Below are positions 29,809 to 61,158 of a stretch of 64,000 nt of DNA, in pieces (the first letter of the stretch is position 1; each line of letters begins with the position of its first letter). The position numbers and the translations under genes were made by a program. Origin of the DNA: Actinomycetota bacterium. GTDB taxonomy: Bacteria > Actinomycetota > JAICYB01. Under the pieces are notes generated by a model. That model ran no database searches, was not told the origin of the DNA, and saw only the letters and a program-made list of their open reading frames with translations. The stretch lies in NCBI GenBank assembly GCA_040905525.1, contig JBBDRJ010000018.1:88769-152768 (forward strand). Direction: 5' to 3'.

Positions 29809-32800
29809 CGCTTCTTGTCCTTAGCGGTTCGCTGCGGAAGCGACGGCAGGGCCAGGCGGGGACGCTTGGTCATGTCCGGTTCCAGCGGACGGTGCTTGCG
29901 CAGCGCTTCGCGCATCAGGCGCAGCGCCGTGTCCATCTGGGGGTCACGGCCGGCGGCGTGATCTTGCGGTGAGATGTCGACATCGTGCGTTGGGTCCGTC
30001 CCGTAGTTCTCTACCCCCCACCCGACGTCGGTGAACCAGAAGGAGTACTCGGGCTGCGTCGTGATCCCGTTGTCGACGAGCACGTGGCGCATGTTGATGC
30101 CGACGACGCCTCCCCACGTTCGCTTCCCGACCACGGGGCCCATCTGCTTCATCTTGAAGACGTGAGAGAAGATGTCGCCGTCCGATCCGGCGAGCTCGTT
30201 GGTTATGCACACCAGCGGCCCGGCGGGTGAGTCTTCCCAGTACGGTTCCGGGTCGCCCCAGCGCGTGACCGCATAACCGACTCGTTCGCGCGCGAGCTTC
30301 TCGAGGATGATCGATGACACGTGGCCGCCCCCGTTGTAGCGGACGTCGATGATCAGGCCGTCGCGGTGCATCTCCGCGCTGTAGTACCGGTGGAACTCCG
30401 AGAACCCCTCGGGCCCCATGTCCGGGATGTGGATGTACCCGACCCTTCCTGCTGTTGCCTCGTGGACGAAGGCCCGGTTCGTCTCGACCCACTCGCGGTA
30501 AAGAGGGCCCGAATCGTCGGCCAAGGTCTTGACGACGACCGTGCGCGGGTTGCGTCCGCGCGTATCGCCCAGGACGAACTCGACGTCGACGCCGGCTTGG
30601 TGGACGAGAAGCAAGTGCGGCGGCCGGTCCTCTGAGACCGCCTGGCCGTTGACGGCGAGGATCGTGTCGCCCTCCCTGGCCTGAACCCCCGGTGCGGCGA
30701 AAGGCGAGTTGTGCTGTGGATCCCAGCTGTCTCCGCGCACGATGTGGGTGATCGTCCAGTGGCCACCGCGAAAGCTCACCCGGCTCGCGAGCAAGCCGAC
30801 CCGGTACTGCGGCGGCGGCTTGATATCGCCGCCCATCTCGTAGGCGTGGGATGTCCCGAGCTCGCCGAGCATCTCCCACATGAGGTCGGAGAACTCCATA
30901 CGGCTCGCAACCTTCTCGACGAGCGGGCGGTAGCGATCGTGGATCCGACGCCAGTCCACGCCGGACATGTCTGCGACCCAGAAGTGCTCTCGCTGGAAGC
31001 GCCAAGCCTCGCGGTACATCTGCCGGTATTCAGTCGCCGGGTCGACGGAGACGCGGACGCGTCCCAGATCGATCCATCCGCTGCGTCGTCCCGGCTCGTC
31101 TTCGGCCTTGGGATCCGGCTTCTCGCCGGCCTTGAGCGCTCGAAGCTTGGGTCCGGCCCGGTAGACCAGCGTCGATCCGTCGGCCGAGACCTGGAAGGCC
31201 GAGACGCCTTGCACGATGGTGTCGAGCTTCAGCTCGTTCAGGTCGTATACGTCGATCTTGCCTTTGGGCTTCTTGTCGTCGACCTCGAAGATGTCGTCGC
31301 CGAGCGTGCCAACTACGGGCCAGCTTGTGAACAGAACCTTTCCGCGTATGCCGCGCACCTGTGTGTAGCGGCCCTCGGGCATCGGGAAGGCGGCCACACG
31401 GTCATGGATGCCTTCCAGATCGACGGCGACCGGTTCGGGTGCAGACTTGGAGTCCTTTTTCTCGGCAGAGCGCTTGGCCTTCTTGTCGGCGCCGGCTTCG
31501 GGATTCTTCTTTTCGTTCGGCTGGGATCCGAAGCCGCGGGGCTTGGGAACGAAGGGCGAGGGGTCGGCGTCGCGCAGCGTGATCAGATGTGGGCGGACCG
31601 ACCGGGGGAACCCGTAGGAGAAGAACAGAGTGTCGGAAACCGGATCGAAGATCCGGTGCGACAAGAAGTACAGGTATTTGCCTTCGGGGTCGAAGGCGGG
31701 CGAGTAATCGAAGAAGTCAGGGCGCGTCACGTCCTGCGTGGCTCCGGAGGACACTTCGCACAGCCGGATGGAGGCGTTGCGAGCCGTCGACGCATAGCTG
31801 TACGCGACGTATCGGCCATCGGGTGACCAGGCCGGCCCCGATATCACGCGATGAGGGCTCCGATCGAGCACGCGGCTTCGATCGCTCTTCAGATCGATCC
31901 AGATCAACTCGTTGCGATGATTGGTCAAGACGACCTGTTGGGCCGTGGGTGAGGTGACGAGCTCCATCGGCCGGCCGATGTCTACGCGGTCGAGTCGCTT
32001 CGTCCGGCTGGCGTCGGAGGCGGAATAGACCTCGATGGCTTCCTCGCCGCCTTCGTCGGAGACGCAGACGAGGGCCTCCCCGTCGCTCGTCCAGTGCGGA
32101 AGCCGGTAGCGCACGCCGTCGCGCTGGCCGTACTGACGTACGGCCAGCTCCCACAACGGCATCGTGAACAACTTTCCCCGAGTTGCGAGCGCGACGGCGT
32201 GCCCATCGCCGTGGACGCCCCAGCTGTGCAGGAAACGTTTGGCATCGACGAAGCGCCGGTTGCGTCCGATGCGCGGGCTCCGGAAGTCGACGTCCACCCT
32301 TTCCGAGATGTCGGTCGCCGGGTCGTAAGTCCAGATCTCCGCGGCCAGCTGATAGGCGATGCGTTGTCCGTCCGTCGATGCCCATCGCGCGTAGTACGTG
32401 TCGTGATCGGTGTGGCGGCGGACGTCCCGCCCCGCTGGGGTGCAGGAGTAGAGGTTGCCGATGCCTTCGTGGTCGGACAGGAAGTAGATACGACCTCCGA
32501 CCCACAAGGGGGAGGCAAGGTTCCCCTCGACGTTGAGTAAACGCCTGAAACTTCCCCGACCTTGCGCGTCGATCCAGATGTCGCCTCGCGTTCCTCCGCG
32601 ATACCGCTTCCAGCGGGCGGGGTCGATGGTGTGGCGGCCGAGGACGATTCCTTCCCCGTTCGGTGCGTAGGCCAGCTCGGTGGCCGGGCCGACGTTGATC
32701 TGCTCCGGGATCCCTCCATCGGGGTCGAGCGCGTACACGCGGTAGTCGCCGCGGTTGGCCAGGCCGGAGTCGCTCATGAAGAGGATGCGACCGTCGGGCG

Positions 32801-33110
32801 TCCAACCGCGCACGGCGGTGAGAGAGCCGAGATAGGTGCGGCGGCGAGCCTGGCCCCCGTCGGCAGGCATGACGTAGACCTCGGCGTGCGCCTCCTCGGT
32901 TCCCGTGAACGCGATCAACTCTCCGTCTCCCGAGACGATCGTGCGCCCGACCGGGCCGAGGTTGGATGTGAGCCGGCGGGCGACACCTCCAGAGCGAGGA
33001 ACGGTCCACACGTCGTCCTCGCTTATGAAGACGATGCGATCGCCCGCGATGGACGGGGATCGGAAGTACCCGCTGTTGATCGTGTCGGTGTCCATCATGG
33101 CGGGGGTCAA
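29805..33110 (-). CDS. Tricorn protease homolog (S41 peptidase with beta-propeller and PDZ domains)
   Basis: 1101 aa; TTG start; repeated propeller-like segments, C-terminal S41 core (GPVVGKRTWGG); size and architecture match tricorn. Confidence 0.8.
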   Translation of the reverse strand: MTPAMMDTDTINSGYFRSPSIAGDRIVFISEDDVWTVPRSGGVARRLTSNLGPVGRTIVSGDGELIAFTGTEEAHAEVYVMPADGGQARRRTYLGSLTAVRGWTPDGRILFMSDSGLANRGDYRVYALDPDGGIPEQINVGPATELAYAPNGEGIVLGRHTIDPARWKRYRGGTRGDIWIDAQGRGSFRRLLNVEGNLASPLWVGGRIYFLSDHEGIGNLYSCTPAGRDVRRHTDHDTYYARWASTDGQRIAYQLAAEIWTYDPATDISERVDVDFRSPRIGRNRRFVDAKRFLHSWGVHGDGHAVALATRGKLFTMPLWELAVRQYGQRDGVRYRLPHWTSDGEALVCVSDEGGEEAIEVYSASDASRTKRLDRVDIGRPMELVTSPTAQQVVLTNHRNELIWIDLKSDRSRVLDRSPHRVISGPAWSPDGRYVAYSYASTARNASIRLCEVSSGATQDVTRPDFFDYSPAFDPEGKYLYFLSHRIFDPVSDTLFFSYGFPRSVRPHLITLRDADPSPFVPKPRGFGSQPNEKKNPEAGADKKAKRSAEKKDSKSAPEPVAVDLEGIHDRVAAFPMPEGRYTQVRGIRGKVLFTSWPVVGTLGDDIFEVDDKKPKGKIDVYDLNELKLDTIVQGVSAFQVSADGSTLVYRAGPKLRALKAGEKPDPKAEDEPGRRSGWIDLGRVRVSVDPATEYRQMYREAWRFQREHFWVADMSGVDWRRIHDRYRPLVEKVASRMEFSDLMWEMLGELGTSHAYEMGGDIKPPPQYRVGLLASRVSFRGGHWTITHIVRGDSWDPQHNSPFAAPGVQAREGDTILAVNGQAVSEDRPPHLLLVHQAGVDVEFVLGDTRGRNPRTVVVKTLADDSGPLYREWVETNRAFVHEATAGRVGYIHIPDMGPEGFSEFHRYYSAEMHRDGLIIDVRYNGGGHVSSIILEKLARERVGYAVTRWGDPEPYWEDSPAGPLVCITNELAGSDGDIFSHVFKMKQMGPVVGKRTWGGVVGINMRHVLVDNGITTQPEYSFWFTDVGWGVENYGTDPTHDVDISPQDHAAGRDPQMDTALRLMREALRKHRPLEPDMTKRPRLALPSLPQRTAKDKKR

Positions 33111-33128
33111 TATACGGCCGAGGACGCT

Positions 33129-34211
33129 TCAGCCGCGCCCGGCCGCGGCGACGAGCGGAACCAGCATCTCGTCGGACGTCAGGCTTCCATGGCCGCTTCG
33201 GAGAAGTCCTTCGCCGGGATTGTTCGGATCAACGAACCCGATGGGGGCGTACGCCGCGAGAACGACGTCGCCGATGCGGCGGCGAACTTCGGGGGACGGG
33301 GGACGGGTGCCGAGCCATCCCTCGTCGATCAACCGGTCGCGGGTGAAGCACCAGGCCCGATCGGAGAACAGCGCGCTGGCTGCCTCCAGCAGATCGGCCG
33401 CGGCTCCGTCGCGTGCGTGCAGATAGCGGAAGCGGCTCTCGCCCGATTGGGCAACGCACATATCGTCCAGAAGGCCACCGAGCTCGATGCGTTCGTCGAA
33501 ATGTACGTGGCCGTGGTCGGCGGTCACCACTAGTGCCGTTGTCTTCGGCAACGCGTGCAGCAATTCGTCCACTAATCGATCGCAGAATCCGAGCTCGCGC
33601 TCGAAGAACCCGTCCCGCATGCCGTGCACGTGAGCGACGAGGTCTGGTCCGTCGTAGTACGCGTACACGAACCTGTTGCCCTGCCCGGTGAGCAGGCGGC
33701 AATGCTCGACCAGCCCGGACGTCGAGTGATAACCGTGGAACGCCGCGCCTCGGTACAGCATGGCGGTGAACTTCGAATCGCGGAACCCGGCACGAGACAC
33801 GACTGGAAGAACCTGTCCGCCGAAGGCCTCGCGCGGCTGAATCTCATCCGGTTCGGGTGGGGTCTGTCCCTGCATCGCCCAGCGAATGACGTTCAGCACG
33901 TTGCGCCCGAGCCAGATCCGGTAGCCGACAACGCCGTGTGCGGCCGGCGACAACCCCGTCGATATCGAAGTGAGTGCGGTCGGAGTGGTCGATGGCACAA
34001 CCGAAGTGATCGCACCACCGTCGAGAGCCGCGAGATTAGGCAATCGCTCGCGCCGCCGCTGGAGCTCGTTCCAGCCGAGTCCGTCGAGGATGAGCAGAAC
34101 GACCGAATCGGCTTCGCGCGCGGGATCCGGCACCCACGCGGCCTTTGATTGCAGACCGCGCACGAGATTAGTGATGCCCGCGCCTTCGTATTCGGGACGA
34201 ACCGGATCCAC
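33129..34211 (-). CDS. Alkaline phosphatase family protein (type I phosphodiesterase/nucleotide pyrophosphatase fold)
   Basis: ORF 33129..34271 (GTG); alternative GTG at 34211 overlaps the upstream stop by 1 nt; metal-site motifs LILDGLGW, VVTADHGH. Confidence 0.6.
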   Translation of the reverse strand: MDPVRPEYEGAGITNLVRGLQSKAAWVPDPAREADSVVLLILDGLGWNELQRRRERLPNLAALDGGAITSVVPSTTPTALTSISTGLSPAAHGVVGYRIWLGRNVLNVIRWAMQGQTPPEPDEIQPREAFGGQVLPVVSRAGFRDSKFTAMLYRGAAFHGYHSTSGLVEHCRLLTGQGNRFVYAYYDGPDLVAHVHGMRDGFFERELGFCDRLVDELLHALPKTTALVVTADHGHVHFDERIELGGLLDDMCVAQSGESRFRYLHARDGAAADLLEAASALFSDRAWCFTRDRLIDEGWLGTRPPSPEVRRRIGDVVLAAYAPIGFVDPNNPGEGLLRSGHGSLTSDEMLVPLVAAAGRG

Positions 34212-35104
34212 TAGCTTCCGACGGCGGCTTTTTGCGCGTTGGCCACGATCGCGTTCACGACCAGCGGCCACGCGTCCTTCGGAAGATCGTGGCCCATGCC
34301 TTCGATCGTCACGAGCCTGGCCCGCTCGATGACATCGGCCATCTTCCGACCGTTGGCCACCGGGACGAGCCGGTCGTCGGTGCCGTGGATCACGACGATA
34401 GGGATCGTGAGCTTGACCAGGGAGGCGCCGCGCCCGGGGGCGGCTCGGACCGCGAGCATCTGGCGCACTCGGCCTGCAGGTGCGTAGCTGCGGTCGTAGG
34501 TGCGTGCCGCGATGTCGCGCATAGCGTCCTCGTCGAAGGGGAAACCGCGACCGGCCATGATCCGGCGGTGACGCACGTCCTGCTCGATCGCCTCATCACG
34601 CTCGGTGGCCGCCGGCTCGGTGAAGATCGTGAGGACGTCCACGTCGTCGGTAAGAACGGGATCCTCTCCCATCGCGGACATGATCGAGGCGAGAGAAAGC
34701 ACACGATCGGAATGACGGATCGCGAGGACCTGTCCGATCATCCCGCCCATCGACTGCCCGGCTATGTGGGCTTTGGTTATCCCCAGGCGATCCAGGAGCC
34801 CGGCGACGTCGTCGGCCATGTCGTCGACCGTGTAGGGAAGACCGGGCGATGCCTCGTCGATTGGCGCTTCCGCGGCGTCACGCCGGAGCGAAGCGGAGGG
34901 GCTATCGAACTTCGTGGTCAGTCCGACGTCCCGGTTGTCGAAGGTGATCACGTGGAAGCCTTCGTCCACCAGGAGGTCGCGGAAGCCTTCCGGCCACCGG
35001 ATGAGCTGGGAGCCCAGCCCGTTTATCAGGACGAGGGCCGCGTCGTCCGGCGCCCCGAACGTCTCGTAGTAGATCTCGATGCCGTTGGCCTTGGCGATGG
35101 GCAT
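34211..35104 (-). CDS. Alpha/beta hydrolase
   Basis: ORF 34211..35311; start moved to Met at 35104 (MPIAKANGIEIYYETFG); nucleophile elbow GQSMGG; the upstream ORF extension is an artefact of the tandem repeat. Confidence 0.8.
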   Translation of the reverse strand: MPIAKANGIEIYYETFGAPDDAALVLINGLGSQLIRWPEGFRDLLVDEGFHVITFDNRDVGLTTKFDSPSASLRRDAAEAPIDEASPGLPYTVDDMADDVAGLLDRLGITKAHIAGQSMGGMIGQVLAIRHSDRVLSLASIMSAMGEDPVLTDDVDVLTIFTEPAATERDEAIEQDVRHRRIMAGRGFPFDEDAMRDIAARTYDRSYAPAGRVRQMLAVRAAPGRGASLVKLTIPIVVIHGTDDRLVPVANGRKMADVIERARLVTIEGMGHDLPKDAWPLVVNAIVANAQKAAVGS

Positions 35105-35163
35105 GCACAGATGCTCCGCCAGTTGGCGCTTGCCTCGCAAGCGCTGCGGGTACGCTGCAATCA

Positions 35164-36765
35164 ATGGCCGGGAGCATCCCCGCCTCTTCGCCTGCCTTTT
35201 CGCCCGCCTTTTCGCCCGCCTTTTCCAATGAGCCGTTCGCCGATCTTCGATCCGCGGAGGTTCGCGAAAAGTTCGGTGCTGCAGTATCGGCCGCCGCCCG
35301 CTCTGCCGCATTCGAGGCTCCGCTGATCATCGCCGGCGAACGCTTAGCCACCCAAGGAAGGATCGACTCGGTCGATCCTTCCGATCCGGGGCGCGTCGTT
35401 TGTCGGTCGGGGAGGGCCGGCCGGGCCGAGGTAGATCGCGCGGTCGAGGCCGCGGCCCGCGCGCAGGGCGCGTGGGCCGCCACCTCGCCGCGCTATCGGG
35501 CCGACGTGGTTCTTCGGGCGGCCGCGATCATGCGCGAGAAGCGATGTGAGCTGGCCGGCCTCGAAGTGATCGAGGCCGGCAAGCCGTGGACTCAGGCCGA
35601 CGCCGATGTATGCGAGGCGATCGACTTCTGCGAGTACTACGCGCGAGAGGTCTTGCTTTTGGCCGAAGGCGCGCCGGTGCTGCAAGCCCCCGGAGAGTCC
35701 AACTCCTACGGCTACCAGTCGCGGGGGATCGTCGCCGCGATAGCTCCCTGGAACTTCCCGCTAGCGATCCCATGCGGGATGGTGACGGCGGGATTGGTTT
35801 GCGGCAATGCGGTGATGCTTAAACCGGCGGAGCAGACACCGGGTGTTGGGCTGCGACTGATCGAGATCCTTCTCGAAGCGGGCGTGCCGTCCGGCGCTTT
35901 GGCCTTCCTGCCCGGAGTCGGAGAAGAAGCGGGTGCGGCTCTCGTCGATCACCCGCAGATCTCCGTCATCGCCTTCACGGGCTCGAAGGACGTCGGACTG
36001 CAGATCATCGAGCGTGCCGCGGTCACCGGACGAGGACAGCGTCACGTGAAGAAAGTGATCGCAGAGATGGGCGGCAAGAACGCGGTTGTCGTGGACGCCG
36101 ACGCGGACCTCGACTTGGCCGTACCGGCCATCGTCGACAGCGCGTTCGCGTACGCGGGCCAGAAGTGCTCGGCTGCTTCGCGCCTCATCGCCGTCGGCGA
36201 CGTCTACGACGCGGTCGTCGATCGGCTCGTGGAGGCGACTAGATCGGTGCGGGTCGGCCCCGCATCAGATCCCGAGACCGTGGTCGGACCGGTCATCGAC
36301 GAGATCGCCTTCCGGCGGATCGGCCGTTACCAGGAGATTGCTCGTGAAGAAGGCGAAGTTCTCGTTCAGCGCACCGACATCCCGGACACGGGTTGGTTCG
36401 TGGGGCCAACCGTGGCCGCCTGCGAAGATCCGGACGCACGCATCGCCACCGAAGAGATCTTCGGCCCCCTGATCGTCTGTTTGCGGGCGGACGACTTCGG
36501 GCGCGCGCTCGAGATCGCGAACTCCACCCCGTACGCACTCACCGGCGGCGTGTTCTCGCGTACGCCGGCGCATATCCGGCAGGCTTCCGAGCAGATGCGT
36601 GCGGGCAACATCTACATCAACCGGAAGATCACGGGAGCCCTGGTCGGACGCCAGCCCTTCGGCGGATACGGCTTGTCCGGTGTGGGCTCCAAGGCCGGTG
36701 GCCCCGACTACCTGCTGCAGTTCTGTGAGCCGCGTGTGATCACGGAGAACACGGCGCGGCCTTGA
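35164..36765 (+). CDS. pruA: L-glutamate gamma-semialdehyde (1-pyrroline-5-carboxylate) dehydrogenase, aldehyde dehydrogenase family
   Basis: 533 aa; ALDH motifs (EMGGKNA, catalytic-Cys region GQKCSAAS) and P5CDH-like C-terminus GGYGLSGVGSKAGGPDYLLQF; N-terminus carries a (PAFS)3 repeat. Confidence 0.7.
   Translation: MAGSIPASSPAFSPAFSPAFSNEPFADLRSAEVREKFGAAVSAAARSAAFEAPLIIAGERLATQGRIDSVDPSDPGRVVCRSGRAGRAEVDRAVEAAARAQGAWAATSPRYRADVVLRAAAIMREKRCELAGLEVIEAGKPWTQADADVCEAIDFCEYYAREVLLLAEGAPVLQAPGESNSYGYQSRGIVAAIAPWNFPLAIPCGMVTAGLVCGNAVMLKPAEQTPGVGLRLIEILLEAGVPSGALAFLPGVGEEAGAALVDHPQISVIAFTGSKDVGLQIIERAAVTGRGQRHVKKVIAEMGGKNAVVVDADADLDLAVPAIVDSAFAYAGQKCSAASRLIAVGDVYDAVVDRLVEATRSVRVGPASDPETVVGPVIDEIAFRRIGRYQEIAREEGEVLVQRTDIPDTGWFVGPTVAACEDPDARIATEEIFGPLIVCLRADDFGRALEIANSTPYALTGGVFSRTPAHIRQASEQMRAGNIYINRKITGALVGRQPFGGYGLSGVGSKAGGPDYLLQFCEPRVITENTARP
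35190..35225. repeat. 12-bp tandem direct repeat x3 (gcc[t/c]gccttttc)
   Basis: gcctgccttttc gcccgccttttc gcccgccttttc, preceded by a degenerate partial unit; in frame within the pruA 5' end, encoding PAFS-PAFS-PAFS. Confidence 0.7.
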
Positions 36766-38156
36766 CCGACACCACCATGCAAGACCGACAACGGGGCGCG
36801 ACTCGTGTAGCGATCTCGGCGCTCGCGTGGACGGCGTTGCTCGCCGGAGCCAAGACGACGGTGGGCGTGCTCACCGGATCCGTTGCCGTTCTGGGCGACG
36901 GTTTGCACTCGATCCTCGACGTCGTCGTCGCGGGGGTGACGCTTTTCGCCGTGAGGCTGTCGGGAAAGCCTCCCGATCGGGAGCACCCCTACGGGCACGG
37001 ACGCATCGAGAACCTCGCCGCGCTCGGCGAAGCCTTCGTCATGTTCATCGTCGGCGCCGGCGTGGGGGCCGAGGCCGTGCGCCGGATCGTGAACGATGCC
37101 GAGATAACGGCTCCGGTATACGCGATCGCCGTTACCGCGGCGGCGCTGGTCATCGGCGCGTGGCGCTCGCGCGTGCTTCGGCGCGCGGCCGCCCGTTTCT
37201 CCTCGCCCGCCCTGCAAGCCGATGCCCTCAACATGACGGCAGATGTCGGTGAGTCTCTTGCCGTTCTGATCGGACTCGGTGCATCGCGCCTTGGCTTCCC
37301 GGCCGGGGATCCCATCGCGGCCCTGGTCGTCGTGGCGACGATGTGGGTCATGGCGGGACGCATCGGATGGGCGGCGGTTAATGTCTTGATGGATCGGGTA
37401 CCGGCCGGTCTGCAGGAGCGCGTCGCGGCGGCCGCCCGTGGCGTGAGCGGCGTCGCGGGCGTCGGCGATCTCCGCGTCCGGGAGTCGGGGCCGAACGTGC
37501 ATGCCGAGGTCAACATCAGCGTCGGCCGCACGGCGTCGGTCGAACGATCTCACGAGATCACCGAAGCCGTGGAGGCTGCCGTTGCGAGCGCTGTGCCCGG
37601 GGCCACGGCAACCGTGCACGTCGAGCCGAGCACACGAGGAGAAGACTTCGTCGCGCGCACCTTCGCAGCAGCGAATCGTCTCGGGCTGGCCGATCAGGTG
37701 CACAACGTGCTGGCCATCCGTCATCCGGAAGGGCTCTGGCTGATGCTGCACGCGAAGGTTCCGGCCTCCACGCCGCTGGCCGACGCGCATGCCATAACCG
37801 ACGAGCTCGAGCGCGAGATCCGCAAGGAGATACCGGCGCTCGCGCGGGTCGAGATCCACGTCGAACCGCACGAGCCACCCATGATGCGCGGGTCCGATGT
37901 AGGCACCGAGCGCGCGCGGCTGACCCGTGACGTTCAACGCGTCGCCGAGAGACACGATCCGATCACGCGGTGCCACGAGGTGGCCATCAGTGAGGCCGAG
38001 GATGGCCTGCACCTCGTTCTGCACTGCGAAGCGCCTGGAGGCACGACGATCGGCGAGATTCACGACGCGTCACTGTGGATCGAGGACGAGATCCACCGTC
38101 GCTACGACGAAGTGCGCAGCATTACCGTGCATTTCGAGCCGCAGCGGTTATCGTGA
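36762..38156 (+). CDS. Cation diffusion facilitator (CDF) family transporter with tandem C-terminal cytoplasmic domains
   Basis: 464 aa from TTG 36762 (alternative ATG 36777); CDF TM core (HSILDVVV, HPYGHGRIEN) followed by two successive CTD-like segments. Confidence 0.7.
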   Translation: MTDTTMQDRQRGATRVAISALAWTALLAGAKTTVGVLTGSVAVLGDGLHSILDVVVAGVTLFAVRLSGKPPDREHPYGHGRIENLAALGEAFVMFIVGAGVGAEAVRRIVNDAEITAPVYAIAVTAAALVIGAWRSRVLRRAAARFSSPALQADALNMTADVGESLAVLIGLGASRLGFPAGDPIAALVVVATMWVMAGRIGWAAVNVLMDRVPAGLQERVAAAARGVSGVAGVGDLRVRESGPNVHAEVNISVGRTASVERSHEITEAVEAAVASAVPGATATVHVEPSTRGEDFVARTFAAANRLGLADQVHNVLAIRHPEGLWLMLHAKVPASTPLADAHAITDELEREIRKEIPALARVEIHVEPHEPPMMRGSDVGTERARLTRDVQRVAERHDPITRCHEVAISEAEDGLHLVLHCEAPGGTTIGEIHDASLWIEDEIHRRYDEVRSITVHFEPQRLS

Positions 38157-38169
38157 TGCGATTCACGAA

Positions 38170-39333
38170 ATGAACACCTACCGGCGCATACAGGCTGATC
38201 CGGCTGATTACTTCGCGGCCGAGGAAGTCAAGAAGGCAAAGGACTATCAGCGGCCGCTCACGGTGGCGCGCGCGATCTCGCTCGTGCTCAACGCCGGTCT
38301 TATCGTGGCCGTGATATCGACCGACGCAGCGCCGCGTCTGGCGGATGCTGCCGGCATCGATGCGTGGCCGCTGCGGCTGCTGTTCGTCCTTATCTTGTTG
38401 ACGCTGGCTCTCACGATCATCGATCTGCCCATCTCGATCTGGACGACCTTCTCCCACGAACGCAAATGGGAGTTCTCAACCGAGACCCCGGGCGGATTCG
38501 TTGGGGACGAGGTCAAAGGCTTCGTGCTGGGGATAGTGCTTCAGGGAGCGCTCTTCCTGACGCTGTGGTGGCTCATCCAAACGACCGAACTTTGGTGGCT
38601 GGCCGGGTGGGCCGCGTTCTTCCTCTTCAGTGTGGTTCTGGCGTTCCTGTTCCCGATCGTCATCATGCCGATCTTCAACAAGTTCACGCCGCTGGAAGAC
38701 GAAGGTCTTGCGACGAGGCTGCGCGCATTGGCCGAGGGAGTCGGGATGCGCATCAGCGGCGTTCAGGTAATGGATGCCTCCAAGCGGACGCGCAAGGACA
38801 ACGCTTTCTTCGCCGGGCTCGGCGGTTCACGCCGCATCGTGATCTTCGACAACCTCTTGTCCCAGCCCGCCGACGTGATCGCGAGCATCGTCGCCCACGA
38901 GCTCGGTCACTGGCGCCGCCGCCACGTGGCGAAGGGGATCGTGCTGGGCACCGTCACGTCGCTCTCGTTGTTCGTGGTTCTGCGTTTCGTAGCGTCGTGG
39001 GATGCAGCGCTCGATTGGGCCGGTGTCTCGAGCGTCCGTGATCCGGCGGCTCTGCCTCTCGTCCTGCTCGTCTTCGCCCCCGTCAGCTCGGCTATCGGCA
39101 TCGTGCAGGCTTGGATCTCTCGTGCGCACGAGCGACAGGCCGATATCGATGCGTTGGAGATCACCAACGACCGCGAGGCCTTCGCAGAGACCCACCGAGG
39201 ACTTTCGACTCGAAACCTCATCGACCTCGCGCCCTCGTGGTGGCGATACGTCCGAGCGAGCCACCCGCCGCCGGCCGAGCGTCTTCGGCTGGCCGATGAA
39301 TGGCGCCCCTCCGAGCGATCGAAAGTAAGCTGA
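38170..39333 (+). CDS. M48 family zinc metallopeptidase (Ste24/HtpX-like)
   Basis: ORF 37927..39333; start at ATG 38170 (MNTYRRIQADPADYF); HExxH motif VAHELGHW, multi-TM N-terminal half. Confidence 0.8.
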   Translation: MNTYRRIQADPADYFAAEEVKKAKDYQRPLTVARAISLVLNAGLIVAVISTDAAPRLADAAGIDAWPLRLLFVLILLTLALTIIDLPISIWTTFSHERKWEFSTETPGGFVGDEVKGFVLGIVLQGALFLTLWWLIQTTELWWLAGWAAFFLFSVVLAFLFPIVIMPIFNKFTPLEDEGLATRLRALAEGVGMRISGVQVMDASKRTRKDNAFFAGLGGSRRIVIFDNLLSQPADVIASIVAHELGHWRRRHVAKGIVLGTVTSLSLFVVLRFVASWDAALDWAGVSSVRDPAALPLVLLVFAPVSSAIGIVQAWISRAHERQADIDALEITNDREAFAETHRGLSTRNLIDLAPSWWRYVRASHPPPAERLRLADEWRPSERSKVS

Positions 39334-39338
39334 GGCCC

Positions 39339-40280
39339 GTGGCCTACGCTCCGCCCGACACACGTCCTCCACACCGCTCGACGGCCGATCGCATCGTGCG
39401 CGTCATCGGCGTCCTCGGCCGGATCTTCGTGGCGGCCGGGCTGGTCCTGCTCTTCTTCACCGGCTATCTGCTGTGGGGCACCGGTGTCTACACCAAACAG
39501 CAGCAGGTGGATGCCAAGAAGGTGCTCGAAAGCAATCCGATAGTCGACCAAGCAGAGATATCAGAAGGCGATATTCCACCGGCCCGGCCCCCACAAGGCT
39601 TGAAGCTGGGGGACCCGCTGTTCTCGATCAAGATCCCGAAGATCGGTCTGGACACGGCGATCGTCCAAGGCGTGGGACGCGAGGAGCTCAAGAAGGGTCC
39701 GGGATTGTTCCCCGACTGCGACGAGTACGGCGGCAGGGACTGCGTGCCCGAGGCTAAGTATCCCGGCGAGAACGGCAATGTGGCCATCTCAGGCCACCGC
39801 ACTACATACGGCGCTCCCTTCTACCGCATCCAGGAGCTGGCCCAGGGAGACATCATCGACTTCATCTCCGGCCGCGCGCGGTACCGCTACAAGGTGCGGG
39901 GCTCGGAGATCGTGGATCCGGTGGCCGGCTTCAACGTTGTGCTCCAGCACGGCAAAGACGAGCTCACGCTAACGACCTGTCACCCGCGGTTCTCGGCGGC
40001 GCAGCGGTTGATCATCAACGCAGATTACGTCGGTGCATCGTTGGTGGCAGCGCCGCAGGGTCCCACCGGCGGCGGCGCGCGGCCGAGCGCTCAGCCTGTC
40101 GTGGGCGCCGACGTTCTGATCCTCGCCAGCATCGCTCTCGCCAGCGCTTTAGCATCGCTCGGACTATCGAAGCGCTACAAGCATGTTGCCGCCTACATCG
40201 CGCTCGGCCTGGCAGGCGCAGCCGGCCTGTGGATAGGCGTGTTCCCGCGAGTGATCGCGCTTATGCCGGCGAACTACTGA
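39339..40280 (+). CDS. Class E sortase
   Basis: ORF 39300..40280; GTG 39339 (after GAGG) avoids overlap with the upstream gene, ATG 39300 also possible; N-terminal TM anchor, catalytic region TLTTCHPRFSAAQRLII, C-terminal TM. Confidence 0.65.
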   Translation: MAYAPPDTRPPHRSTADRIVRVIGVLGRIFVAAGLVLLFFTGYLLWGTGVYTKQQQVDAKKVLESNPIVDQAEISEGDIPPARPPQGLKLGDPLFSIKIPKIGLDTAIVQGVGREELKKGPGLFPDCDEYGGRDCVPEAKYPGENGNVAISGHRTTYGAPFYRIQELAQGDIIDFISGRARYRYKVRGSEIVDPVAGFNVVLQHGKDELTLTTCHPRFSAAQRLIINADYVGASLVAAPQGPTGGGARPSAQPVVGADVLILASIALASALASLGLSKRYKHVAAYIALGLAGAAGLWIGVFPRVIALMPANY

Positions 40281-45245: not shown

Positions 45246-46706
45246 ATGGCCATCGACGCACCGGATCGCGCAGCAACCGTCGGACCCACATTGCCCGAAT
45301 GGACCCGCCCGGCGACGCCGGTCGGTCCGTTACTCGCCGCCGCCATCGTCATCGCCGCCGTCGCCTTCGACATCGCCGCGCGTTCGCAGGCCGTGGGTGT
45401 CGGTGCATCGATACTGATCGCGACCTTCGCCGGTGTATTGTTCGCAACCGGTCACCTGGAGAATGCGCAGAGCCGCGGACTTGCGTTGGTGGCCGTTGGC
45501 TTCGGCGCTCTGCTCTCGATCCGAACGAGCCCTTGGCTCGTACCCTTCGACGTCCTGGCCTCGATCGGGTGTCTGGTTGCTGCGGCTTCTCTCGCGCAAG
45601 GCGGGAGCCTCTTGGACATATCCGGACCGAAGGCGGTGCTCCGCGGTGTGCACGCCGGGGTCAACGGCCTGTTCGGGCTCGGCTACGTCACGCGCGGGCG
45701 TGGGACGAAGTTTGCGCCCGCGATGCGCGGTTTGGCGATCGCCATTCCCCTGGCCGTCGTTGTCGGGATCCTGCTCGCCTCGGGTGATGCCGTGTTCGCG
45801 TCCGCCTTCAAGTTCGACGCCGTCGATCTCGTCAGTCACATGCTCCTGCTCTTTTTCGGGCTGTGGCTGGCGGCGGGGCTGGCCCGAGTATGCGCAACGC
45901 CGAAGATAGACGAACCCGACGCGACGATGCCGCGGCTGGGCAAGGTGGAGTGGGCGATCGTTCTCGGCGCGCTCAATCTGGTGTATCTCGGCTTTGCCGT
46001 AGCACGCATCGTGGCCGTGTCCGAAGGTGGCGCTCGCGTTCTGAAGACGGCCGGCCTGACCTACGCTGAGTACGCGCGCTCAGGCTTCTTCGAGCTGCTG
46101 GCCGCCGCCGCCATCACTCTCGTCGCCCTGATCGTCCTGCGGGCTACTGCCGATGTATCGGAACCGAGATCGCGCGGGGTCTTCTCGGTCCTTGCGTGCT
46201 CGGTCATCGCGCTCAATCTGCTGGTCGTCGCTTCGGCGTTCCAGCGGCTTGCGCTCTACGAGCAGGCGTTCGGTCTTTCGATGCTCCGCTTTTACAGCAT
46301 GGTCTTCTGTATCTGGCTCGCCATCGCGCTCGTGGCGCTGGCTCTGTGGATCGCCGGCGTCGCAGGCCGGCGCCCCTGGTTCTGGTCGATAGCTGCTGGT
46401 ACCGCGCTCGCCTTGCTCCTTGCGCTGAACATCGCGAATCCGGAAGCGATCGTCGTTCGCCACAACGCGGGTGCGGATACCGTTGAGGGCTTCGACGCCG
46501 AGTACGCGAACGAGCTATCCGAGGACGCCGTTCCGGCCCTTAGCGATGCAGCTAAGGAAATGGACGAAGGAGCGAGGGGAGAGGTGGAGCGTCGACTTTG
46601 CCCGGCCCGTCCCCCTTCTGCCACCGGATGGAAGAGCTTCAATCTCAGCAGAGAGAACGCCGCTACGGCTCGCATCTTGTTTTGCTCTCGGTCCTCCGGG
46701 CGTTGA
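45246..46706 (+). CDS. Polytopic integral membrane protein, function unknown
   Basis: 486 aa, 10 or more hydrophobic segments; no catalytic motif recognised. Confidence 0.5.
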   Translation: MAIDAPDRAATVGPTLPEWTRPATPVGPLLAAAIVIAAVAFDIAARSQAVGVGASILIATFAGVLFATGHLENAQSRGLALVAVGFGALLSIRTSPWLVPFDVLASIGCLVAAASLAQGGSLLDISGPKAVLRGVHAGVNGLFGLGYVTRGRGTKFAPAMRGLAIAIPLAVVVGILLASGDAVFASAFKFDAVDLVSHMLLLFFGLWLAAGLARVCATPKIDEPDATMPRLGKVEWAIVLGALNLVYLGFAVARIVAVSEGGARVLKTAGLTYAEYARSGFFELLAAAAITLVALIVLRATADVSEPRSRGVFSVLACSVIALNLLVVASAFQRLALYEQAFGLSMLRFYSMVFCIWLAIALVALALWIAGVAGRRPWFWSIAAGTALALLLALNIANPEAIVVRHNAGADTVEGFDAEYANELSEDAVPALSDAAKEMDEGARGEVERRLCPARPPSATGWKSFNLSRENAATARILFCSRSSGR

Positions 46707-61091: not shown

Positions 61092-61120
61092 GTCCCCAAA
61101 GCCCCCTCCCCGCAACGAAA

Positions 61121-61158
61121 GAAGAGGCCCCACCCCGGGGCCTCTTCTTCTTTTCGGG
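61121..61158. terminator. Bidirectional intrinsic terminator between convergent genes
   Basis: 11-bp GC-rich perfect stem gaagaggcccc / ggggcctcttc with 5-nt loop, followed by a T-rich tract on the plus strand and preceded by an A-rich tract (T-rich on minus). Confidence 0.6.

Follow-up and report, generated by a model that had tools for sequence, protein, structure and literature searches.

The 5′ end of pruA in an uncultured Actinomycetota lineage carries a 12-bp tandem repeat just inside the coding sequence, facing a divergently transcribed hydrolase gene. Such a placement raises the question of what the array is: a set of regulator-binding sites, a variable tract that tunes the gene, a selected part of the protein, an artefact of assembly, or a tolerated expansion of a shorter ancestral sequence. 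We addressed this question in a 64,000-nucleotide stretch of DNA containing both genes, referred to here as the window, and in its relatives. We delineated the array by Tandem Repeats Finder (TRF), by the positions of its units and by comparison with shuffled sequence. It comprises four units arranged head to tail, as follows.

35179..35226, + strand: tandem array of 4 x 12-bp units, pruA codons 6-21
35179-35190, + strand: array unit 1, CCCGCCTCTTCG, encoding PASS
35191-35202, + strand: array unit 2, CCTGCCTTTTCG, encoding PAFS
35203-35214, + strand: array unit 3, CCCGCCTTTTCG, encoding PAFS
35215-35226, + strand: array unit 4, CCCGCCTTTTCC, encoding PAFS

TRF assigned the array a period of 12, 3.9 copies, 91% matches and a score of 80, the highest among the 37 TRF arrays in the window. 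As a null for this score we used 100 dinucleotide-preserving shuffles of the whole window, in which the top score had a mean of 52 (sd 7, maximum 69) and never reached 80 (0/100). The 12-bp periodicity is perfect across 32 nt (35193-35224). Three of the four units each carry one point difference of their own, and unit 1 (PASS) is the most diverged copy. Unit boundaries coincide with codon boundaries in the ORF 35164..36765, and the array reads PASS PAFS PAFS PAFS. It is therefore an in-frame coding tandem repeat, with at least three head-to-tail copies beyond chance and a 12-nt unit, a multiple of three, within a translated ORF. A first-pass annotation, made from the sequence alone, had described three near-perfect units; the three PAFS-coding copies are as it described them, whereas the array as a whole has four units (3.9 copies by TRF).

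We next consider the gene that hosts the array, for which the relevant features are these.

35164..36765, + strand: pruA, standalone L-glutamate gamma-semialdehyde (P5C) dehydrogenase, 533 aa (profiles, structures and AF2 model)
35164..35166, + strand: pruA start codon, ATG (start scan; conserved M-A-G start)
35215..35235, + strand: last array unit and conserved motif (PAFS-NEP), corresponding to the ancestral single copy (orthologue, structure and profile alignments)

The encoded protein is a P5C dehydrogenase without a fused proline dehydrogenase. It covers the profiles TIGR01237 and NF002852 end to end (positions 2-510/511), scoring 637.1 bits against a curated cut-off of 659.65 and 638.1 bits against one of 648, respectively, so that each score falls slightly short. 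The nearest solved structure is the P5CDH module of Geobacter PutA (4NM9, E 9e-160), and the monofunctional P5CDH structures 3QAN, 3RJL and 1UZB match with E values of 1e-151 to 1e-133; the closest solved relatives are P5CDH enzymes or PutA modules (overall E 1e-160 to 1e-132), as expected of a P5CDH family member. Two residues that we take to be the ALDH catalytic Glu and Cys, E301 (EMGGKN) and C335 (GQKCSA), are invariant across a 23-sequence alignment. ATG 35164 is the sole canonical in-frame start from the upstream stop (35002) to codon 115, and the M-A-G start is shared by the orthologues P0002, P0003 and P0004, a conservation that confirms it as the pruA start. ORF register and start-codon scan thus agree with the earlier description of a repeat in frame just past the only usable start. 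The array directly precedes an F-x-N-E-P motif, the point at which solved homologues begin to align: PDB homologues start at residues 18-20 of PruA, and NCBIfam profiles at residues 19-21.

On the other side of a very short intergenic region lies the hydrolase gene, the apparent ORF of which extends into pruA on the opposite strand.

34211..35104, - strand: divergent alpha/beta-fold hydrolase, 297 aa, ATG at 35104 (MPIAKANG...) (Pfam Abhydrolase_1; P0121)
35105..35163, no strand: divergent intergenic region, 59 bp, from hydrolase ATG to pruA ATG
35105..35311, - strand: spurious hydrolase ORF extension containing HWKRRAKRRAKRQAKRR, a reverse-strand reading of the pruA 5′ end

The hydrolase is 100% identical to P0121 (297 aa), which is named 'MAG: alpha/beta hydrolase [Actinomycetota bacterium]' at NCBI. 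Its ATG is preceded by GGAG 9 nt upstream on the minus strand, and orthologous hydrolases are called from a conserved MPI... start. The longer minus-strand ORF, 34211..35311, which includes the Lys/Arg-rich HWKRRAKRRAKRQAKRR, is purely mechanical, and the in-frame translations upstream of the hydrolase in three orthologous loci (L081, L082 and L083; see below) are unrelated to that of the window and to one another. The conserved MPIA... start and these unrelated upstream translations rule out the Lys/Arg-rich stretch as a true gene or extension, which bears out the suspicion of the first-pass annotation that it was artefactual. The same annotation placed the repeat about 85 bp from the hydrolase start; this suits the three PAFS units, which lie 87 bp from the ATG, whereas the whole array comes to within 75 bp.

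We then compared the locus with its closest relatives. The closest proteins covering the N-terminus, P0001-P0004, share 73-81% amino acid identity with PruA of the window and are 519-521 aa long, that is, 12-14 aa shorter than its 533 aa. A further protein, P0036, is 95% identical and consists of a C-terminal fragment only, and the nearest species representative in the genome scan is 73% identical. The orthologues begin with MVGFDLPFANEP in P0001, MAGTRLPAFANEP in both P0002 and P0003 and MAGTLPAFANEP in P0004; apart from that of P0001, these starts take the form MAGT(R)LPAFANEP, and each contains a single unit (LPAFANEP or LPFANEP). Orthologous DNA was compared for P0001 (L081), P0002 (L083-L085) and P0004 (L082), and P0003 was compared as protein only. 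The window and the loci of P0002, P0003 and P0004 share one gene order, in which Phosphodiest and alpha/beta hydrolase genes point away from pruA, and pruA is followed in its own direction by cation-efflux (CDF), M48 peptidase and sortase genes. The 1.9-kb contig of P0001 likewise has a divergent hydrolase start upstream of pruA, and its downstream gene overlaps the pruA stop.

In a DNA alignment of the divergent region, both flanks are conserved and a single clean gap, 32-35 columns wide, coincides exactly with the array. The Asn codon follows the ATG at a distance of 63 nt in the window, compared with 27 nt for both L081 and L082 and 30 nt for L083, and the single orthologue unit reads CCC GCC TTT GCG in L082 and L083 and CTG CCC TTC GCG in L081. 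Copy number therefore varies between related genomes, with four units in the window and one in L081, L082, L083 and the protein P0003. Since the orthologues hold one unit, the window contains a clean lineage-specific insertion of 33-36 nt, and the three additional copies give PruA 12 extra residues. The first-pass annotation had predicted that a change in copy number would alter the N-terminus without a frameshift, and had suggested comparing copy number and the N-terminal extension among homologues; between lineages, the change from one unit to four has just this effect, and the extension is absent from the orthologues, which have one unit each. No homologue that we inspected carries a repeat like (PAFS)n, and when JGI metagenomes were scanned for exact 20-mers of the array, 24 loci matched and a PruA relative was encoded at none of them (0/24). 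Two of these loci, L097 and L109, which have the same sequence, contain a 39-49% hydrolase homologue ~460 bp away in the other orientation, which we judged to be a coincidence.

These comparisons point to a lineage-specific, in-frame slippage expansion of 36 nt, starting from an ancestral Pro-Ala-Phe-Ala/Ser unit and translated as a disordered, near-neutral tail, and we consider this the likely account of the array. The ancestral state would have been a single 12-bp unit, CCC GCC TTT KCG (Pro-Ala-Phe-Ala/Ser), directly before F-x-N-E-P. Three copies (36 nt) would then have been gained through replication slippage or unequal exchange between short GCC/CGCC homologies; the CGCC CGCC homologies inside the unit could seed slippage of this kind. 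After the expansion, three units would each have acquired one point change. The array would be transcribed and translated from ATG 35164 on a probably leaderless mRNA, with no effect or a slight one, so that the outcome would be a tolerated, near-neutral change in length and neither a switch nor a binding site. Codon usage is consistent with this scenario. Of the 191 Phe codons in ten window genes, 9 (5%) are TTT, yet the array itself has three TTT among 12 codons. The rarity of TTT, together with its presence in the single unit of L082 and L083, argues for amplification of an existing unit over a selected sequence. The three single-base differences among the four units further indicate that the array is not brand new. 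In known repeat systems, interruptions of this type lower array instability.

Where the array would lie in the transcript depends on the pruA promoter, for which two features were predicted.

35151..35156, + strand: TACGCT, a -10-like TANNNT box at -13..-8 (numbered from the A of the ATG) and putative promoter element for leaderless transcription of pruA
35166..35184, + strand: small predicted hairpin of codons 2-3 (GGCCGGG) with the unit-1 CCCGCC, also predicted in L082 and L083, with z-scores that are not significant

In Mycobacterium tuberculosis, where leaderless mRNAs are common, 73% of primary transcription starts have a TANNNT box whose centre lies 7-12 bp upstream (PMC3898074). We accordingly looked for a box at this distance from the start codon and for the lack of a Shine-Dalgarno sequence (PMC3898074), and pruA displays both. 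TACGCT is the single TANNNT within 40 nt upstream of the pruA ATG; the box is kept as TAC[GC]CT in four loci, with its first base 13-16 nt upstream of the A of the ATG, and in each of the four the 20 nt that precede the pruA ATG lack an SD-like tetramer. On this sequence evidence, the conserved box and the missing Shine-Dalgarno sequence suggest that the pruA mRNA is probably leaderless or nearly so, which would place the array at about +16 to +63. As RNA, the array is rich in pyrimidines and predicted to be single-stranded (fold z-score near 0), and folding of the 5′ region of the pruA transcript, both for the window and for three orthologues, revealed no significant structure. With a pyrimidine-rich tract at these positions, a leaderless mRNA could differ in translation, stability or partner binding.

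We also examined the tail in the protein. The AF2 model of PruA, computed from a 23-sequence alignment that is gapped at the N-terminal tail, has a mean pLDDT of 87 and a pTM of 0.88. Residues 1-16 have pLDDT values below 50, which is partly expected because the alignment is gapped over the tail, and secondary structure is absent before residue 31; the remainder of the model is confident. Many Acidimicrobiia homologues of PruA are PRODH-P5CDH fusions, and all 24 of the fused relatives inspected carry unrelated Pro/Ala/Thr/Asp-rich linkers of ~25-30 residues before [FY]x[NHP]EP. That linkers of unrelated sequence occupy this position suggests that arbitrary flexible sequence is tolerated there. 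The model thus suggests that the 12 extra Pro/Ala/Ser/Phe residues probably form an unstructured N-terminal tail outside the catalytic fold, and such a tail could alter translation, stability or partner binding. We also considered the tail as a signal peptide or lipoprotein signal and rejected this reading, as inspection showed no basic n-region, hydrophobic core or lipobox Cys.

Several other explanations have to be weighed against a tolerated expansion. The window comes from a metagenome-assembled genome, so the true genome might hold one unit and the array might have arisen in assembly or sequencing. We consider this hardly credible. An NCBI MAG (GCA_040879475.1, contig JBBDKJ010000004.1; L110) differs from window positions 31211-38104 by one mismatch in 6,894 nt, and an independently built Logan contig from run SRR27977661 (L111) is 100% identical to positions 31211-35452 (4.2 kb); both contain the four-unit array base for base, and the two assemblies may share the same reads. 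An artefactual duplication would be expected to yield identical copies, whereas the units carry distinct substitutions and keep the frame. The same array in both assemblies, the unit-specific substitutions and the intact frame together make an assembler-specific artefact unlikely, and the possibility of an assembly artefact, which the first-pass annotation had named as fatal to its reading, was not borne out. That annotation had further proposed that the repeat could be a protein-binding array. As direct repeats positioned 75-122 bp upstream of the hydrolase ATG, next to the very short divergent intergenic region, the four units are placed as might be expected of binding sites for a regulator of the hydrolase promoter, the pruA promoter or both. 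However, the array is missing from all four syntenic orthologues, which have the same divergent layout and a single unit, so that conservation in orthologous regulatory regions, the mark of a direct-repeat TF array, is lacking. The whole array moreover lies within translated sequence, and its 12-bp period is out of step with the helical repeat. Nor is the unit enriched elsewhere: at ≤2 mismatches, the 64-kb window contains 15 unit sites including the 4 in the array, and the remaining 11 compare with 9.6 expected for the whole window. We detected no hydrolase-strand TANNNT box in or near the array and no Rfam match at the gathering threshold in the whole window, and a scan of positions 34900-35500 found no sigma-70 consensus-type promoter or terminator, a negative that is uninformative for a high-GC actinobacterium. 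With the array absent from orthologues, not enriched in the window and contained in the coding sequence, a binding-site function appears extremely unlikely.

The remaining alternatives assign a function to the repeat itself. One is that the (PAFS)n tail is under selection, for instance because it gives the enzyme a flexible arm with which to oligomerise or to dock a separate proline dehydrogenase, in mimicry of the PutA linker; PruA of the window is standalone, and the tail sits exactly at the PRODH-P5CDH linker junction of fused homologues. We nevertheless regard selection for such an arm as highly unlikely, given that the closest standalone orthologues have tails of just 6-9 residues, that a similar repeat is absent from homologues, and that the rare TTT codons and near-identical units indicate recent amplification. 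Alternatively, the array could be a hypervariable coding VNTR, in which frequent copy-number change in the population tunes the tail, or the 5′-terminal part of a leaderless transcript, and hence the level or behaviour of PruA. The difference between four copies and one among lineages, the perfectly periodic 32-nt core and the start of the array at +16 of a probably leaderless mRNA are all compatible with this idea. Yet the array has just four copies, the allele is identical in L110 and L111, the two sequences from the same species, and the point differences in three of the four units, interruptions that normally stabilise a repeat, imply that it has stayed unchanged for some time. A 12-nt unit rules out on/off switching, being a multiple of three, and the RNA fold gives the array no structure to alter. 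Neither is the arrangement that of a contingency locus, as the unit is in frame and both the start codon and the -10-like box precede the array. Hypervariability is thus improbable, and very improbable is a bolder version of it, in which the array is young and changes fast and, from its place at +16 to +63 of a leaderless pruA transcript, either tunes translation initiation or the tail through its copy number or binds a regulator shared with the hydrolase. If that version were true, the array would constitute a heritable, reversible dial on proline catabolism in an uncultured Actinomycetota lineage.

The tolerated slippage expansion therefore remains our preferred reading, and it has practical consequences for annotation. 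The pruA start should be set at ATG 35164, with the 12 extra residues kept in the protein, and the hydrolase start should be set at 35104, with the spurious Lys/Arg-rich extension removed. Were it to prove polymorphic, the array could also be used for strain typing. As an in-frame coding tandem repeat it is of a well-known kind and touches no long-standing question; its value is as a clean, datable case in which slippage has probably lengthened the gene of a housekeeping enzyme by 36 nt, in frame, in an uncultured Actinomycetota lineage.

Comparison with known systems places the array more precisely. Phase-variable contingency loci likewise have tandem repeats where a gene begins, but the 12-nt unit in pruA keeps the frame and the array does not sit between promoter elements, so no switching is possible. 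Direct-repeat operator arrays and iterons also place several direct repeats close to divergent promoters; the repeats in the window, in contrast, are coding, are not conserved in orthologues, are not enriched elsewhere in the window and have no associated regulator. The transcript context resembles that of actinobacterial leaderless mRNAs (Cortes et al. 2013, PMC3898074), with the same TANNNT spacing, no Shine-Dalgarno sequence, a very short intergenic region and conservation among orthologues; the pruA transcription start, however, is a predicted one, and leaderlessness pertains to the surroundings of the repeat and not to the array as such. At the protein level, the tail occupies the same place as the linker of PutA (PRODH-P5CDH), for example that of Geobacter sulfurreducens (4NM9), N-terminal of P-x-F-x-N-E (query residue 18 corresponds to 4NM9 residue 477), and it resembles the linkers of Acidimicrobiia fusions in being Pro/Ala-rich. 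PutA, however, has a PRODH domain upstream where pruA of the window has a divergent hydrolase, and the PutA linker is unique sequence, whereas the tail is one tetrapeptide repeated. The closest counterparts are bacterial in-frame coding VNTRs generated by slipped-strand mispairing. The array differs from these in having four copies, three of them interrupted, and in residing in a cytoplasmic housekeeping catabolic enzyme instead of a surface or host-interaction protein. It shares with them the head-to-tail arrangement within a coding sequence, a unit of 3n nucleotides, a copy number that differs without a frameshift and a position in the protein where sequence complexity is low and the structure tolerant.

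The pruA stop codon and the TTG start of the following cation-efflux (CDF) gene overlap by 4 nt (36762-36765), and the gene order across 33129-40280, with a Phosphodiest gene and the alpha/beta hydrolase gene running leftward and pruA, CDF, M48 peptidase and sortase genes running rightward, is kept in relatives at 73-75% identity. Together, the overlap and the conserved order suggest that pruA is the first gene of an operon with functionally unrelated genes.

Comparison with the deposited metagenome-assembled genome (MAG) contig L110 revealed a sole mismatch across 6,894 nt, at position 35494, where the window has T and the deposited contig has G. Codon 111 of pruA is consequently TAT (Tyr) in the window versus GAT (Asp) in the L110 record, and the four closest orthologues with an N-terminus (P0001-P0004) carry Asp or Glu at this position. 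Because of this codon difference, the exact PruA of the window is without a record; by exact look-up, the D111 version of the MAG was likewise missing from the protein collection.

Besides the repeat at the 5′ end of pruA, the following repeats were found.

35356-35382, inside pruA (codons QGRIDSVDPS): perfect inverted repeat, arms of 12 nt, loop of 3 nt, GGAAGGATCGAC tcg GTCGATCCTTCC
61119-61150: second perfect inverted repeat, loop 5-7, AAGAAGAGGCCCC...
45335-45379: tandem repeat with the second-highest score in the window (69), 2.1 copies of a 21-bp unit

The first two are the only loci in the 64-kb window with perfect inverted repeats of at least 12 nt, and that at 61119-61150 may be a terminator. 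Within pruA, the core of the inverted repeat is accounted for by the ID/VD codons, whereas its extension is not. At L082, the locus of orthologue P0004, the counterpart spans 11 nt (GATGGATCGAC tcg GTCGATCCATC) and differs from that of the window by a two-sided change, A-T to T-A, while the loci of P0001 and P0002 (L081 and L083) retain ~7 nt. A small hairpin was also predicted at the pruA start (35166-35184), in which GGCCGGG of codons 2-3 pairs with CCCGCC in the first unit of the pruA repeat; this pairing was likewise predicted for L082 and L083, and the energies were no better than those of shuffled sequences.

The 5′-proximal part of a DUF4153 gene (45246-46706) holds the tandem repeat at 45335-45379, which falls within a hydrophobic segment of Ala, Ile and Val. 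Elsewhere, the 12-mer of the pruA repeat occurs three times in tandem on an unrelated metagenome contig (L106, 2509-2540). A 20-mer match was also seen in two metagenome contigs of identical sequence (L097, 565-584; L109, 4656-4675), ~460 bp from a homologue of the hydrolase (39-49%); the orientation of this homologue is unlike that in the window, and we judged the association a coincidence.

Among genome-contig matches, the majority of Acidimicrobiia and Actinomycetota homologues (loci L002-L051) are fused PRODH-P5CDH proteins whose linker is variable and rich in Pro/Ala. The P5CDH of the window's clade is standalone, with no adjoining proline dehydrogenase gene.
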